Origin: Promethearchaeota archaeon
GTDB lineage: Archaea; Asgardarchaeota; Lokiarchaeia; Sigyniarchaeales; SOKP01
NCBI GenBank assembly: GCA_048937405.1
Contig: JBHLNF010000001.1
Location: 544,001-608,000, forward strand
DNA length: 64,000 nt
Reading direction: 5' to 3'
The notes beneath the pieces were generated by a model. That model worked only from the letters and a program-made list of their open reading frames with translations. It made no database searches and was not told the DNA's origin. A program made the position numbers and the translations under genes. Of this stretch, positions 13,617 to 19,105 are shown one piece after another. Position 1 is the first letter of the stretch. Every line of letters begins with the position of its first letter.

Positions 13617-14681
13617 TTATTTTTTAAGCAAGTTTATCAACTTTTTTACTATTAGATCCCCCATTTCTTTTGTAGTTAGTGTTTTAAAAGCACTATTCTC
13701 AATATCTATGGTTCTTCCTTCGTTAAGGGCTTCCTCCACAGATTTCTCAATTAAAAAACCTATTTCTGGAGAATTGAATGATTCTTGCAACATTAGCTTT
13801 ACACTTAGAATAGTGCCTATTGGATTAGCTATATTTTTTCCAGCAATATCAGGAGCCGAACCATGTATTGGTTCATACATAGATACATGTCCGGGATTTA
13901 TGTTTCCACTGGCGGCCATTCCTAAACTACCAATCAGAAAAGCACCTTCATCACTAGTAATATCACCAAACATATTGCCTGTAACTACTGTTTCGTAAGA
14001 ATAAGGAGCACGAATTAACCATTGACAAAAAGCATCAATATAAACATCCTCTTTCTCTAAATCGGGATAATCTTCACCAATTTTATGAAAGATATTACGC
14101 CAAAATTGACTTGCTTTTATAACATTTGCTTTATCAACAGAAGTAATTTTTTTATGACCATTCTTCTTTGCAAATTCACAAGCATATCGCATAATTCGTT
14201 CACACCCTTTTTTTGTATAAAACATTACACTTTCTGCGCTCTCATCTGATATTTCTCCGATTCCTTTATATATTCCCTCTGTATTTTCTCTAATAATAGT
14301 GAAATCAATACCTTTTCCTATAAATTCATCTCTAAGTGGACATCTATCACGTAGAGGATAATATAACTTGATTGGCCTCATATTCACGTATAGGTCTAAA
14401 TCTTGCCTTATCTTTAAGATTGCAGATTCAGCAATTCCGGGGGGTAAATCAGGAAGTCCAATAGCACCAAATAATAAAGCATCAGAATTTTTAATAATTT
14501 CAAATGTCTTTTTTGGAAGGCTTTCACCACAATCTTTCCAAACTTTACCTCCAGCTGGAGCGTTTATAAATTCAAAATCAAAATCACTATATTCAGAAAT
14601 AACTTTTAGAATCTTTATCCCTTCTTCTACTACTTCTAATCCACATCCATCACCATGAGTGACTGCAATTTCTTTTTTCAT
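13617..14681 (-). CDS. leuB: 3-isopropylmalate dehydrogenase
   Basis: GDGCGLEV, RENTEG, VDKANV, NMFGDI, EPIHGSAPDIAGK. Confidence 0.93.
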   Translation of the reverse strand: MKKEIAVTHGDGCGLEVVEEGIKILKVISEYSDFDFEFINAPAGGKVWKDCGESLPKKTFEIIKNSDALLFGAIGLPDLPPGIAESAILKIRQDLDLYVNMRPIKLYYPLRDRCPLRDEFIGKGIDFTIIRENTEGIYKGIGEISDESAESVMFYTKKGCERIMRYACEFAKKNGHKKITSVDKANVIKASQFWRNIFHKIGEDYPDLEKEDVYIDAFCQWLIRAPYSYETVVTGNMFGDITSDEGAFLIGSLGMAASGNINPGHVSMYEPIHGSAPDIAGKNIANPIGTILSVKLMLQESFNSPEIGFLIEKSVEEALNEGRTIDIENSAFKTLTTKEMGDLIVKKLINLLKK

Positions 14682-15199
14682 TATGATCCCTCTTCTGAAT
14701 TGGTAATTTGTTCTCTTGCAAAATTTATTAGACCTTGTGCTTTAATTATTTTCTGTAAAAAAGCTGGAAATTTGCTAAAGGAATATGATTTGCTAGTGGT
14801 TATATTTTCTATAATTCCGTTCCCAAAGTCAATATTTAGTAGATCTCCATTATTAAAAGCATCGATGTCAGAAAACCGAAGAATTGGAAGTCCAATATTA
14901 ATGGCATTTCTGAAAAATATACGTGCAAAACTGGGAGCGATAATTAATTCTATTCCCGAAGCTTTTAAAGCAATTGGTGCTTGTTCTCGGCTTGAACCAC
15001 AACCAAAATTTGAGCCTGAGACGAGAATTGTTGCCTGAAGATTATCTTTATTCTTATGAAACTCCCCATCTAAATCTTCCATGCAATGCTCAGCTAAAAA
15101 CTGAGGATTTATGTCTACTAAGTATCGAGCAGGGATTATTAAATCTGTATTGATATTTTCTTGAGCATATTTAATTACTTTTCCTTTTATTTCTATCAC
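14681..15199 (-). CDS. leuD: 3-isopropylmalate dehydratase small subunit
   Basis: NINTDLIIPA, NFGCGSSREQA, SFARIFFRNAINIG. Confidence 0.95.
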   Translation of the reverse strand: MIEIKGKVIKYAQENINTDLIIPARYLVDINPQFLAEHCMEDLDGEFHKNKDNLQATILVSGSNFGCGSSREQAPIALKASGIELIIAPSFARIFFRNAINIGLPILRFSDIDAFNNGDLLNIDFGNGIIENITTSKSYSFSKFPAFLQKIIKAQGLINFAREQITNSEEGS

Positions 15200-15215
15200 C
15201 TTTTATATTTTACCT

Positions 15216-16487
15216 TTATATACTTTCTGGAGATATAATAAACCCTTTTAAAGCGGAAGATGCAGCAATCACTGGATTTGATAAATAGACTTCGCTTTCG
15301 GTGTGTCCCATCCTTCCCATAAAATTTCTATTTGTTGTTGATATTGCTCTTTCACCAGGAGCAAGGATTCCCATATGTCCTCCTAAACATGGTCCACATG
15401 TGGGTGGAGAAACAACCGCTCCAGCTTTAAGAAAAATTTCGATTAATCCTTCTTTAAGAGCATGAAGTTGAATGGTAGGAGTCCCTGGAATAATAATGCA
15501 TCTCACATTTGGATGGACCTTGTTGTTTTTCATTATTTTTGCTGCTAACCGTAGATCTTCCATTCGTCCATTGGTACAAGAACCTATTACCGCTTGGTCG
15601 ATTTCAATATGTAAATCTTGTACTTCAGATATAGGTTTTGTATTGCTTGGTAAGTGTGGAAGAGCTATTTGAGGTTCAATATTACTACAATCAATCTCAA
15701 TACTATCATGATATTTCACATTATTATCATCATATGTTTTAAATTTTGAAATTCCTACACTTTTCATATATTGTTCAGTAATTTTATCTGGAAAAATGAA
15801 TCCTGTTTTTGCTCCAGCTTCTATCGCCATATTACACATAGTAAAACGGTTTGTCATAGAAAAGTTGTTGATAATTTCTCCTGTAAACTCCATAACCTTA
15901 TATGTTGCCCCATCAACCCCAATTTTACCAATGGTATACAAAATTAAATCTTTACCAGAAACCCATTTATTCAACTGACCAGTATATATGAATCTCAAGG
16001 TTTCAGGTACTTGTAACCAACATTTTCCAAGAGCCATGGCTACACCTAGATCAGTCGAGCCAACACCCGTAGAAAAGGCTCCTAATGCCCCATATGTACA
16101 AGTATGAGAATCAGCACCAATAATTAACTCACTTGGAGCAACTAAACCCTGTTCGGGAATAAGACAATGTTCAATGCCTACTTTTCCTATTTCAAAATAG
16201 TGTTGAATGTGGTATTTCTTTGCAAAATCTTTTAAAATTTTGCACTGTATTGCCGAAGCAATATCCTTATTTGGTGTAAAATGATCTGGTGTAATTATTA
16301 TCTTGCTCGGATCGAAAACACTTCTTTCAGTTCCTTCAATAACTTTTTCGAAAACTTCTATAGCTTTTGGTGCAGTTATATCATTACCTAAACATTTATC
16401 GATATTTACTAAAACAAAATCTCCAGCAGAAATGTCCTTTTGATCACAATGATCTCTTATAATTTTTTCACTAATTGTTAGATCCAT
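15216..16487 (-). CDS. leuC: 3-isopropylmalate dehydratase large subunit
   Basis: GADSHTCT, IGSCTNGR, CGPCLG, STTNRNF. Confidence 0.95.
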   Translation of the reverse strand: MDLTISEKIIRDHCDQKDISAGDFVLVNIDKCLGNDITAPKAIEVFEKVIEGTERSVFDPSKIIITPDHFTPNKDIASAIQCKILKDFAKKYHIQHYFEIGKVGIEHCLIPEQGLVAPSELIIGADSHTCTYGALGAFSTGVGSTDLGVAMALGKCWLQVPETLRFIYTGQLNKWVSGKDLILYTIGKIGVDGATYKVMEFTGEIINNFSMTNRFTMCNMAIEAGAKTGFIFPDKITEQYMKSVGISKFKTYDDNNVKYHDSIEIDCSNIEPQIALPHLPSNTKPISEVQDLHIEIDQAVIGSCTNGRMEDLRLAAKIMKNNKVHPNVRCIIIPGTPTIQLHALKEGLIEIFLKAGAVVSPPTCGPCLGGHMGILAPGERAISTTNRNFMGRMGHTESEVYLSNPVIAASSALKGFIISPESI

Positions 16488-16527
16488 AGTTATAATAATT
16501 TTTTTTTTAAATTGAAATTAATTGATT

Positions 16528-18144
16528 TTATGACTGGCTTTTTTTCTTAACAATTAGGTTCAATCCTTTTATCAACGATAAAACAGAGCACATAACAATA
16601 TCTTCATGAATCGCACTAGCTTTAACCACTGTATTAGTTTCAACATCCATGATTTCAAGAGTAACATGCCCTAATGCCTCAGTCCCCCCTGTAATAGCAT
16701 CAATTTGAAAATTTAAAAGCACTATCTTACTCATCGGTTTAAAGCATTTAACAATTGCTTTACAGGAGGCATCTACAGGTCCTACTCCCGTTGCTGATGC
16801 TACTTTTTGCATTATATCTCCATTATTTTTGATGTTTAGTCGAACTGTTGATGTAGGTGTAACTGATCCAGTTAAAACAGTTAACTCCTCAAGCGTTACA
16901 AATTGTTCTTCTTTTGGTATTTCACCCATAACATCTTTCACAATAGCTAAGAAATCCTCTTCAGAAACTTCATGCCCCTTATCACCAAGACTTTTTACAT
17001 GTTCTCTTATTTTCATAAATTGTTCATCATTGGTCTTAATACCTAAGTCATCAATCTTAGCTTTAAGAGCATGACCACCTGTGTGTTTTCCAAGTTTTAT
17101 TGATTGCTTGATTATTGCTTCCACGTCGTCAGTACGGTGAATTCCTATTAATTCTGGAGTAATTGGTTCATATGTTCGTGCATGTTGTATCATTGCATGA
17201 GCATGGATACCTGCTTCATGAGCAAACGCATTCTGACCTATTAGTGGTTGCAATCGTCCGATCCTAACTTTTCCACCACAATAACTCTCAATTAATTTGG
17301 CTGTGGGAAAAATTTTTGTTGTTTTAATATTCATAGGGATCTGGTATAAAGCATAAAGAGACATACAAGTTTCTTCAAAAGATGCATTTCCTGCTCGTTC
17401 ACCCAATCCTAAAATAGTTGTTTGAGCTTCTGAAGCACCATTTTCAAACGCAGCGACAGTATTTGCAACAGCAAGGCCAAAATCATTATGACAATGGGCT
17501 GCAATACGAATATTTTTAGGTAAAGCTTCATGATTCTTCCGAATAATATATCCAAAAGCTACTGGAGATATTGTACCTACAGTGTCAGGTATATTTATTC
17601 GTGTGGCTCCGCTATCAATAGCAGTTAAATTAGCTTTAATTAAAAAGTCTAAATCTGATCTAGTAGCATCCTCTGCTGAAAATAAAACTATAGAATAATG
17701 TTCTTTAGCATAAGAGACAGTTTCTCTTATTCGTTCTATAACTTCATCTTTGGATAATTGAAGTTTTTCTCTCATATGTAATTCTGAAGTGGCGCAAAAT
17801 AAATGTATACTATCCATATCAGCCTCGATAACTTTATCTATATCGGGTTTCGCTGTTCTAGCTAAACCCATCACTTCAGAATCCAAACCCATTTTTGCAA
17901 TATCTCTACAAGCATCAAAATCACCTGGAGATGTTATAGGAAAACCCGCTTCTATAATATCAATTCCCAAATCATTAAGAGCTTGAGCAATAGATAGCTT
18001 TTCTTTATGAGTAAAACTTATACCTGGAGTTTGTTCCCCATCACGGAGTGTTGTATCAAAAAAGTATGCTCTCTCAGGAAGGATAAGTGATCCTCTAATT
18101 TTTTCCATCATGTCGGAAACAGCAATATCGTTTTTATTTACCAT
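16528..18144 (-). CDS. leuA: 2-isopropylmalate synthase (or citramalate synthase paralogue)
   Basis: DTTLRDGEQ, HCHNDFG, GERAGN, C-terminal regulatory domain with GVGPVDA. Confidence 0.88.
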   Translation of the reverse strand: MVNKNDIAVSDMMEKIRGSLILPERAYFFDTTLRDGEQTPGISFTHKEKLSIAQALNDLGIDIIEAGFPITSPGDFDACRDIAKMGLDSEVMGLARTAKPDIDKVIEADMDSIHLFCATSELHMREKLQLSKDEVIERIRETVSYAKEHYSIVLFSAEDATRSDLDFLIKANLTAIDSGATRINIPDTVGTISPVAFGYIIRKNHEALPKNIRIAAHCHNDFGLAVANTVAAFENGASEAQTTILGLGERAGNASFEETCMSLYALYQIPMNIKTTKIFPTAKLIESYCGGKVRIGRLQPLIGQNAFAHEAGIHAHAMIQHARTYEPITPELIGIHRTDDVEAIIKQSIKLGKHTGGHALKAKIDDLGIKTNDEQFMKIREHVKSLGDKGHEVSEEDFLAIVKDVMGEIPKEEQFVTLEELTVLTGSVTPTSTVRLNIKNNGDIMQKVASATGVGPVDASCKAIVKCFKPMSKIVLLNFQIDAITGGTEALGHVTLEIMDVETNTVVKASAIHEDIVMCSVLSLIKGLNLIVKKKSQS

Positions 18145-18180
18145 GTTTTTAACCTTTTATAATTTTATTTAAAATACATA

Positions 18181-18228
18181 GCCCTTATGCTTTCAAGAAG
18201 AAAAATTCGCTCTAGAAAGAATTAGGGC
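18181..18228 (-). terminator. Putative attenuator hairpin in the leu leader
   Basis: mRNA GCCCUAAUUCUUUCUAGAG...UUCUUGAAAGCAUAAGGGC, 16 of 19 positions pair, followed by UAUGUAUUUU. Confidence 0.6.
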
Positions 18229-18231
18229 GCT

Positions 18232-18333
18232 TTATAATAATAAGAGTAATAACAAACTCAATAATTCTAAAGGAAATAAACCTCTCAAACTTATTTTATT
18301 ATTAGAAATAAGTAGACTTTGAGTAGCTTTCAT
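18232..18333 (-). CDS. Leucine-rich leader peptide (LeuL-like, 33 aa)
   Basis: MKATQSLLISNNKISLRGLFPLELLSLLLLLLL*; 14 Leu, 7 consecutive before the stop; directly upstream of leuA. Confidence 0.8.
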   Translation of the reverse strand: MKATQSLLISNNKISLRGLFPLELLSLLLLLLL

Positions 18334-18471
18334 AATTTATAATCCTATTAGAATTTATGATTATTAAAATAGATTGATTATAACCTTATAAATTTTTCTC
18401 TGAATTAGGTTACAATCATTTTAGAAAAGGTCTGAAACTCTTTTGAATATAGGATTACTATTAAAGAATTG

Positions 18472-18680
18472 TCAAACCAATTGATTTTTACTTGAAAAAG
18501 AAAAGATATTTATAATAATTTCTTTTGACCAATACCTATTTTTTCTAATAGTAGAAATTAAAGGTGAATCTGAAAGCCCTACTTCTTCCAAGAAATGGAG
18601 TATATCCTTGAATTTTGTAAAAGTAGTTTGATATTTTCCTTTTTTAAAATAAATTAATCCAATTCTATTATTATATTTGG
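18472..18680 (-). pseudogene. Possible TPR-protein remnant
   Basis: Start-less open frame NNRIGLIYFKKGKYQ..F...L..LEEVGLSDSP resembles a TPR repeat. Confidence 0.3.
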
Positions 18681-18742
18681 ATTTTTTTAATTTTTTGTAT
18701 TTTTTCTAGGTATAAAAAGAATTATCTTAATCTATAAGTAGG

Positions 18743-19105
18743 TTATCTCACTACTTCAAATAGTTCAAGTAGCACATTATCAGGAGCACTAGCCATTACA
18801 TATTTCAAGTTATTAAGACTTTTTATTTCATTACTAAATTGATAACCTATACTTTTCATATGTTCTACAAGAGTTTCTAAATCATTGGTCTCAAATCCTA
18901 AATGCCAAAATGCTCCACTTCCTTTATCTTTAGGTGCTTGATTATAGATAATTATTTTTGATGCTCCAATTTCAATCATTACATTTCGAGTTTCAGCGGA
19001 TCCTCTATCGAACAAAATTTTAGCTTCAAACATATCTTGATAAAATTTGACACTTTCATCAAGATCAGATGCAAATAAATGGATATGATGAAGTGAGGTT
19101 TCCAT
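18743..19105 (-). CDS. VOC/glyoxalase/bleomycin-resistance family protein
   Basis: LHHIHL..SDLDESVKFY, HLGF, APDNVLLELFE. Confidence 0.9.
   Translation of the reverse strand: METSLHHIHLFASDLDESVKFYQDMFEAKILFDRGSAETRNVMIEIGASKIIIYNQAPKDKGSGAFWHLGFETNDLETLVEHMKSIGYQFSNEIKSLNNLKYVMASAPDNVLLELFEVVR

Follow-up and report, generated by a model that had tools for sequence, protein, structure and literature searches.

We analysed a stretch of 64,000 nt from a Promethearchaeota archaeon (contig JBHLNF010000001.1, positions 544,001 to 608,000 of the forward strand; referred to as the window, with position 1 as its first letter) and focused on a small open reading frame (ORF) located upstream of leuA. 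This frame of 33 codons is probably a leader peptide, i.e. a cis-acting leucine gauge for the leuACDB operon which would be read by the ribosome. It is located on the minus strand with its ATG at 18333..18331 and its TAA at 18234..18232 and encodes MKATQSLLISNNKISLRGLFPLELLSLLLLLLL, comprising 14 Leu among 33 codons. The final seven codons directly 5' of the TAA are TTG TTA TTA CTC TTA TTA TTA. leuA begins with the ATG at 18144, leaving a gap of 87 nt behind the leader stop, and is followed by leuC, leuD and leuB, all on the minus strand. An initial annotation of this DNA had correctly described the upstream ORF (uORF) with its 14 Leu codons, seven of them consecutive, leaving the strand unstated. 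Its position ahead of leuA is borne out as well, with the distance corrected from 88 nt to 87 nt. Furthermore, the initial annotation had proposed a bacterial-style attenuator sensing Leu-tRNA. The sensing core of that proposal is strongly supported by the comparisons described below, while the part concerning a bacterial-style attenuator is not.

The leucine codons of the leader were evaluated in a set of 42 leaders dereplicated at 80% identity. Leu accounts for 62% of the last 16 residues compared to 15% in the remainder of the peptide. Its occupancy of the last four positions is 86%, 95%, 98% and 93%, and 50-60% at codons -7 to -13. Phe (3%) and Ile (< 2%, outside the eight commonest residues) are hardly present in the last 16 residues; both are common in this A+T-rich genome. 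The Leu codons of the leaders are mixed (TTA 283, TTG 62, CTN 72), with at least two different ones in 41 of 42 tails. If the last eight codons are read in frame, the commonest residue, which is always Leu, occurs 6.2 times on average, compared to 3.8 and 3.2 copies of the commonest residue in the other two frames. TTA and TTG together represent 83% of the Leu codons in leaders versus a genome average of 62%, TTA being the commonest Leu codon of the genome (51%). An ATG start is found in 37 leaders. Apart from the Leu tail and the N-terminus the peptides are poorly conserved. These statistics point to selection on Leu identity and not on a nucleotide repeat. The earlier argument that mixed Leu codons speak against a TAA microsatellite thus holds, given the mixed tails and the excess of Leu in frame.

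Such a tail is rare in the genome. At least six Leu in the last eight codons are found in only 2 of 10,246 mostly intergenic small ORFs, this ORF included. To place the leader among relatives, LeuA orthologues and their flanks were collected from relatives, from a species-level genome collection and from further genera, whereby these fetches overlap. The nearest LeuA loci belong to metagenome-assembled genomes labelled Promethearchaeota (the Loki-type Asgard phylum). The search for Leu-rich uORFs before leuA in Asgard genomes, which the initial annotation had suggested, revealed a conserved Leu-tailed uORF in about 55 species-level Promethearchaeota genomes from two families (f1 and f2). In family f1, represented by five genera, every locus with enough upstream DNA has the Leu-tailed uORF. 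The same applies to nearly all such loci of family f2, with one genome lacking it. Upstream of leuA, families f3 and f4, which belong to the same order, yielded no Leu-tailed uORF, nor did five other Asgard families sampled or the sampled loci of Hadarchaeota, methanogens and Deltaproteobacteria.

The leader ORFs of the relatives comprise 25-75 codons with the Leu run abutting the stop, and they end 86-131 nt before leuA. Despite strong sequence divergence the distance between the stop and the leuA ATG is 86-101 nt in 48 of 52 leaders. Across the approximately 55 genomes the nucleotide sequences of the leaders are strongly diverged, yet start, frame, stop position and the hairpin behind the stop are kept. 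One relative seemingly showed a deviating architecture with its leader 359 nt away from leuA. This is a scaffolding artefact consisting of an N-run gap and a duplicated leuA 5' end. Moreover the leader peptides of the relatives share an N-terminal M-K-x-L/T-Q motif (often MK.LQ). Neither this motif nor the fixed stop-to-leuA distance is accounted for by the sensing model.

Conservation across about 55 diverged genomes, mixed Leu codons and rarity among intergenic ORFs argue together against a chance ORF, i.e. a (TTA)n low-complexity tract in A+T-rich intergenic DNA. That such frames arise is conceivable in a genome of 4.47 Mb with 29% G+C (26-35% in the window), in which TTA makes up 51% of the Leu codons and off-frame ORFs inside genes often have Leu runs. 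Nevertheless the comparative data refute this explanation as far as sequence analysis reaches, and we regard its probability as negligible.

If the leader serves as a gauge for an amino acid, comparable frames with other residues could precede other pathways, and the initial annotation had indeed suggested cognate leaders. We ranked 4,415 intergenic small ORFs of the genome by single-residue enrichment and then annotated the downstream genes. Leaders for Trp (trpB2, trpD), His (hisIE) and Ile (cimA, ileS) were found in this genome. The first Trp leader, MATVRNFCWQWPWRWR with the tail WQWPWRWR (contig C7, 23793..23743, minus strand), ends 149 nt before the TrpB-like gene trpB2. The second one ends with IIPFRWHWFWRA (tail FRWHWFWRA; contig C11, 2501..2400, minus strand) and is located 186 nt before trpD, encoding anthranilate phosphoribosyltransferase. 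A frame ending with NSYLHHWLHHE (contig C7, 728539..728703, plus strand) is found 81 nt before hisIE. For Ile, MKLKLKPIIGIIAIFIIIIGIII with the tail IIIIGIII (contig C20, 77277..77348, plus strand) precedes the citramalate synthase gene cimA (TIGR00977) by 105 nt; citramalate synthase catalyses the first step of the isoleucine branch. Finally, inspection of class I synthetases revealed a frame ending with MIMIISTIIII before ileS (TIGR00392; contig C28, ~237381..237470, minus strand).

The tails are conserved in relatives in 8 of 8 cases for trpD, 3 of 3 for hisIE and 3 of 10 for cimA. A Trp tail before trpB2 is present in all 24 relatives with enough upstream DNA, families f2, f3 and f4 included. 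Beyond these, five further Asgard families and a second genus of f1 show trpB2 tails containing three or more Trp, and one more family has two-Trp tails. Trp-rich tails were noted in families f5, f6, f9, f18, f20 and f24, examples being SWHPWHSWRWQ, LFWAWRWLLWP and DGWPWRGPWQ, each directly followed by the stop codon. The Trp device thus appears to be spread across the phylum, and the leuA version is seen in two families only. All sister leaders have their cognate codons at the extreme C-terminus, and a hairpin begins at the stop or within 12 nt of it. In the case of Trp, the 5' arm of the hairpin is made up of the final Trp codons themselves, with the stop codon in the loop. Other enriched tails are non-cognate and were rejected as noise, namely Val before a molybdopterin oxidoreductase, eight Ile before a ferredoxin, six Leu before DUF362 and PAS kinase genes, His before an M50 peptidase and a hydrolase, Trp before a GNAT-methyltransferase and Asn before a serine-tRNA ligase. 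Since five or six cognate and conserved leader-gene pairs are found among the most enriched tails, little room is left for explanations beyond amino acid sensing by the translating ribosome. As genes related to Trp, His and Ile are preceded by frames rich in the cognate residue, Asgard archaea with these leaders very probably gauge amino acid supply by means of the ribosome.

Some individual features of the sister leaders are worth mentioning. The region of the trpB2 leader is strongly conserved within the genus, and the stretch directly behind its stop pairs with the final Trp codons. Oligo-U tracts (two or three) follow further downstream, and the region before the start also contains a conserved A/U hairpin with CUCUUUUU behind it as well as two more hairpins. 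By its looks this leader resembles a classical multi-hairpin attenuator more closely than the leuA leader does. The hisIE leader is followed by two hairpins, the second of which abuts a GGGGG Shine-Dalgarno (SD) sequence. In addition a weaker Leu-rich frame ending with KLHAVLLLS (contig C22, upstream of 51226, minus strand) is located before one of two class I synthetases, both of which are putative LeuRS as judged by their N-terminal sequences alone.

The sister leaders also bear on the question whether the peptide itself matters, be it as a hydrophobic micro-protein or as a nascent-chain sensor of free Leu resembling TnaC or the arginine attenuator peptide (AAP). The conserved N-terminus (MK.LQ in many lineages), the hydrophobic tail and the location of the regulatory residues right before the stop, known from TnaC and AAP too, would suit such a function. 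However, the remainder of the peptide is poorly conserved, the tail is nearly pure Leu though Ile and Phe codons are abundant in a genome of 29% G+C, and the Trp, His and Ile leaders precede exactly the genes of their own pathways. Matching residues in the sister leaders imply codon-level sensing and not a shared peptide function. Hence we consider a role of the peptide as such extremely unlikely.

The second element of the leader is a hairpin next to the stop. In the window it comprises 48 nt at 18228..18181 on the minus strand (+4 to +51 after the stop) with a predicted energy of -17.4 kcal/mol (z = -2.5 compared to dinucleotide shuffles). The initial annotation had placed a 48-nt hairpin 3 nt behind the uORF, which agrees with our prediction. 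The U-rich tail it had assigned to this hairpin amounts to U4 only (UAUGUAUUUUA), 8 nt past the stem. When the 75 nt behind the stop are folded, all 52 relatives yield the hairpin as minimum-energy structure, starting 1-7 nt (median 3) past the stop. These hairpins span ~54 nt with 13-25 pairs and a median z of -3.3, and 75% of them are below -2. The hairpin sequence varies between lineages. Its layout is conserved and consists of a pyrimidine-rich 5' base, a purine/pyrimidine apex and a purine-rich 3' base. According to the consensus, positions +6 to +15 are 77-94% pyrimidine with ~1% G, +21 to +25 purine-rich, +31 to +40 pyrimidine-rich and +46 to +55 purine-rich again.

As RNAalifold alignments failed through indels in the arms, we adopted an alignment-free arm-swap test, in which the 5' arm (+1 to +26) of each leader was paired with the 3' arm (+32 to +64) of its own or of a foreign leader. 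Own arms yield -18.9 kcal/mol and foreign arms -11.7 kcal/mol, and none of 10,000 permutations was as low. In 18 of 42 leaders the 5' arm pairs most strongly with its own 3' arm. This indicates that the hairpin arms co-vary.

Consecutive cognate codons followed by a hairpin are reminiscent of a classical bacterial-type attenuator, in which an antiterminator alternates with an intrinsic terminator made up of hairpin and U tail. In the window a U4 is present 8 nt past the stem, which would suit this reading. However, a run of at least five U after the hairpin is present in only ~10% of the 52 relatives, and archaeal intrinsic termination depends on oligo-U and not on hairpins. Moreover, folding for alternative structures, another suggestion of the initial annotation, revealed no competing terminator and antiterminator. 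Mutually exclusive 1:2, 2:3 and 3:4 folds are not predicted, and the hairpin is the minimum-energy fold with or without a ribosome modelled on the Leu tract. A four-region alternative pairing inside the hairpin (Y1:R1 + Y2:R2) was considered as well and rejected for being weak and inconsistent. The leader does not match the Rfam family Leu_leader; a cmscan of 18050..18800 against Rfam with E up to 10 yielded chance matches only (one small RNA and one microRNA family). A classical attenuator at leuA is thus very unlikely.

The position of the hairpin next to the Leu tract suggests how a leucine gauge may work. The predicted transcription start is located 5' of the uORF, which would then be translated. 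If charged tRNA-Leu is scarce, the ribosome would stall while one of the Leu codons of the tail occupies its A site. The front edge of the stalled ribosome would stay short of the hairpin, so that the full 48-nt hairpin could fold during synthesis. The reach of the ribosome is an estimate from an assumed footprint size, according to which a stall at any Leu codon but the last leaves the stem free. If Leu is plentiful, the ribosome would reach the stop and its mRNA channel would open the first ~6-7 G+C-rich basal pairs. As the hairpin begins 1-7 nt past the stop, its base would have to be opened by a ribosome that terminates there. We mimicked the opening by masking the first 12 nt after the stop. 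The mean energy changes from -19.4 to -8.5 kcal/mol, with nothing of the hairpin left except its apex, and the 3' base released in this way is 71% unpaired. Whether the hairpin is folded or opened would finally determine downstream expression.

As output we prefer control at the transcript level by termination or cleavage of the FttA/aCPSF1 type in a polarity-like manner, a tentative choice to which we assign somewhat less than an even chance. In this scenario, the archaeal termination/cleavage machinery would be denied access to most of the 90-nt untranslated gap as long as the hairpin is folded. Once the hairpin is opened behind an uncoupled polymerase, transcription could end prematurely. 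Transcript-level control is favoured because the ribosome binding site (RBS) of leuA is located in an always-open A-rich spacer. This spacer of 36 nt (18145..18180, minus strand) is A-rich and C-poor and contains the SD-like AGGT of leuA at 18155..18152, 8-11 nt before the ATG. What is generally known about termination and polarity by FttA/aCPSF1 underlies the preferred output.

Translational attenuation is the obvious alternative to control of the transcript. The leader ribosome could mask or unmask the leuA RBS, as known for the mycobacterial Cys small ORFs or ermC, or it could expose the SD-like 3' arm as a decoy. The purine-rich, SD-like base of the 3' arm is consistent with this idea, as is the stop-to-ATG gap of 86-101 nt in 48 of 52 leaders, a constraint that a switch acting on transcription alone would not need, and a bacterial precedent exists (bioRxiv 10.1101/834739). 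Partition-function folding, however, indicates hardly any change of the leuA SD-AUG region, with unpaired probabilities of 0.52 in the free leader, 0.61 with a stalled ribosome and 0.57 with a ribosome at the stop (p = 0.08). The freed 3' arm is captured by no alternative pairing. Nor do the duplexes between the Leu tract and the leader's own leuA RBS (-8.0 kcal/mol) exceed non-cognate ones (-8.4 kcal/mol), and in this genome the Leu tract pairs less strongly with the leuA start than with 95% of other gene starts. A pairing of Leu tract and leuA RBS of the mycobacterial Cys type was rejected, as cognate duplexes are no better than non-cognate ones. Altogether we regard translational attenuation as unlikely.

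The logic of the switch may also be inverse. The hairpin would then represent an OFF signal, such as a structure-dependent terminator or a processing or decay site, and a ribosome stalled at the last Leu codon(s) would block its 5' arm. With plentiful Leu the ribosome would terminate and leave fast, the hairpin would fold and expression would stop. The peak of Leu at codons -1 to -4 (86-98%) adjoins the hairpin, the last Trp codons of the Trp leaders themselves form a 5' arm with the stop in the loop, and the trpB2 leader has a conserved hairpin followed by CUCUUUUU. All of this would suit inverse logic. Yet only a stall at the last sense codon is estimated, with the assumed footprint size, to reach the stem. 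Stalls at the Leu codons -7 to -13 (50-60% Leu) would leave the hairpin free and therefore have the wrong sign. In addition ~90% of the relatives have no U-tract after the leuA hairpin. We assign this alternative a rather small chance.

Several results weigh against a leucine gauge that acts through the folded hairpin on the transcript. RNAalifold found no consensus structure for 40 hairpins aligned with MAFFT, and formal covariation is weak. For a subgroup of 14 sequences, it returned only a basal stem of 7 bp with three compensatory pairs, which is weak as well. The whole leader of 206 nt folds no better than shuffles (z -0.6). Opening the hairpin has no predicted structural effect on the leuA RBS, so that the proposed output is based on geometric considerations and on what is generally known about termination in Archaea. 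Conservation of Leu is highest at the very end of the leader, which fits the opposite logic of a stalled ribosome occluding an OFF hairpin too. Finally, a TATA-like TTTTAAAT is located at 18170..18163 (minus strand), 23-30 nt before the leuA ATG, and could give rise to a separate, near-leaderless transcript. The position of TTTTAAAT is not conserved in relatives, and the conserved SD of leuA speaks against a leaderless leuA transcript.

Signals upstream of the uORF are consistent with a transcript that includes the leader. A TATA-like box (TTTATAA or TTTTTAA after A-rich bases) is found at -64 to -53 relative to the start of the uORF in 29 of 42 leaders compared to 10% of control windows. In the window it corresponds to a promoter-like box of AGAAAAA and TTTATAA, resembling a transcription factor B recognition element (BRE) with TATA box, at 18386..18399 (minus strand), 59 nt 5' of the uORF ATG and within a conserved alignment block. 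GG[AGT] occurs at -13 to -9 before the uORF in 29 of 42 leaders versus 25% of controls, and in the window an SD-like AGGA is located at 18343..18346 (minus strand), 10-13 nt before the start. These motifs predict a transcription start ~30 nt upstream of the uORF and an SD belonging to the uORF itself. Upstream of leuA the consensus of 42 relatives shows AGG at -12 to -10 and a spacer with 50-60% A and not more than 6% C. The SD-like AGG before leuA and GG[AGT] around -12 of the uORF suggest that each frame is initiated independently at its own SD. The 3' end of the 16S rRNA, which would include the anti-SD, was not found in the assembly, and the motifs are therefore termed SD-like.

The remaining elements of the locus follow on the minus strand. 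Within the leader ORF (18232..18333, 33 codons plus TAA, with equivalents in relatives) the last 16 codons at 18235..18282 represent the Leu-dense, putative sensing tract according to the codon statistics, including the run of seven Leu at 18255..18235. The leu operon, which is presumably under control of the leader, extends over 13617..18144 as assigned by Pfam and NCBIfam. It consists of leuA (18144..16528; Pfam HMGL-like and LeuA_dimer, NCBIfam 2-isopropylmalate synthase), leuC (16487..15216; Pfam Aconitase), leuD (15199..14681, start uncertain; Pfam Aconitase_C) and leuB (14681..13617; Pfam Iso_dh).

Two further observations were made elsewhere in the genome. A rough ORF call on contig C13 contains a giant single ORF of ~20,600 codons (62 kb) at 86445..148304 (plus strand). 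On contig C2 an ORF of 71 residues (16286..16501, plus strand) with Cys-x-x-Cys pairs and 17 consecutive C-terminal Asp is located 175 nt before a gene of 558 residues. It probably encodes a small, acidic-tailed zinc-ribbon protein and is not a leader.

Ribosome-mediated attenuation is a textbook mechanism of bacteria. Control of amino acid synthesis in Archaea is known via protein regulators (TrpY, LysM, Lrp-type). Our search of full-text literature found no leader-peptide attenuation in any archaeon, and the hits were restricted to bacterial work or unrelated uses of the term. If the gauge functions as proposed, Archaea and specifically the Asgard lineage would read amino acid supply through ribosome stalling, and many unannotated small ORFs of Asgard genomes would have a defined regulatory role. 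The output device would be unlike the bacterial one, and a compact natural switch would make it possible to test directly how translation and RNA folding interact with archaeal termination (FttA/aCPSF1, Spt4/5). The most far-reaching version, a phylum-wide, regulon-like set of Asgard leaders for Leu, Ile, Trp and His at biosynthetic and tRNA-synthetase genes with hairpins that gate termination of the FttA/aCPSF1 type, is conceivable but in our view rather doubtful. If it held true, it would represent the first ribosome-mediated attenuation in Archaea and direct evidence of regulatory transcription-translation coupling in the closest prokaryotic relatives of eukaryotes. As a rule for annotation, the succession of cognate tail, stop and hairpin could flag regulated amino acid genes and help to infer prototrophy in uncultured Asgard archaea.

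Compared to known systems, the leuA leader shares a short leader ORF with cognate codons and a stop-adjacent hairpin with the bacterial attenuators (leuL-leuABCD, trpL and hisL of E. coli; Rfam RF00512; actinobacterial leaders, PMC1262725). In both cases several operons are preceded by this design, each with its cognate amino acid. In contrast, the device described here is found in Archaea, its cognate codons are located at the extreme C-terminus and it has a single long hairpin with no alternative pair. It also differs in having no conserved U-tract and no Rfam match, and in using the common Leu codon TTA instead of a rare one.

Mycobacterial polycysteine leaderless small ORFs constitute a 'Cys ribulon', in which a stalled ribosome blocks a duplex that sequesters the RBS (Canestrari et al., bioRxiv 10.1101/834739). 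Regulon-like small ORFs with runs of cognate codons, ribosome stalling as the signal and the lack of a classical intrinsic terminator are common to both systems. In our case, however, no RBS duplex is predicted and the only structured element is the conserved hairpin next to the stop. The logic that we favour is analogous to that of tnaC/Rho of E. coli and of Rho-dependent leaders (PMC12360218, PMC13675443), where the cover provided by the ribosome past the stop decides on the access of a factor; FttA/aCPSF1 would replace Rho here. In tnaC the nascent chain senses free Trp and the stall at the stop codon blocks Rho, whereas here an upstream stall at hungry codons would let the hairpin close the RNA.

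Eukaryotic uORFs such as those of GCN4 and ATF4 or the one of the arginine attenuator peptide likewise tie amino acid supply to a downstream coding region by a small uORF. They depend on cap-dependent scanning and reinitiation governed by eIF2, whereas both frames of the leuA leader have SD-like motifs and the supply would be sensed by cognate codons. The link to eukaryotic uORF control that had been proposed for this locus, common descent included, is a conjecture. Taken together the leuA leader combines a known sensing principle, undescribed in Archaea as far as we searched, with a different expression platform.

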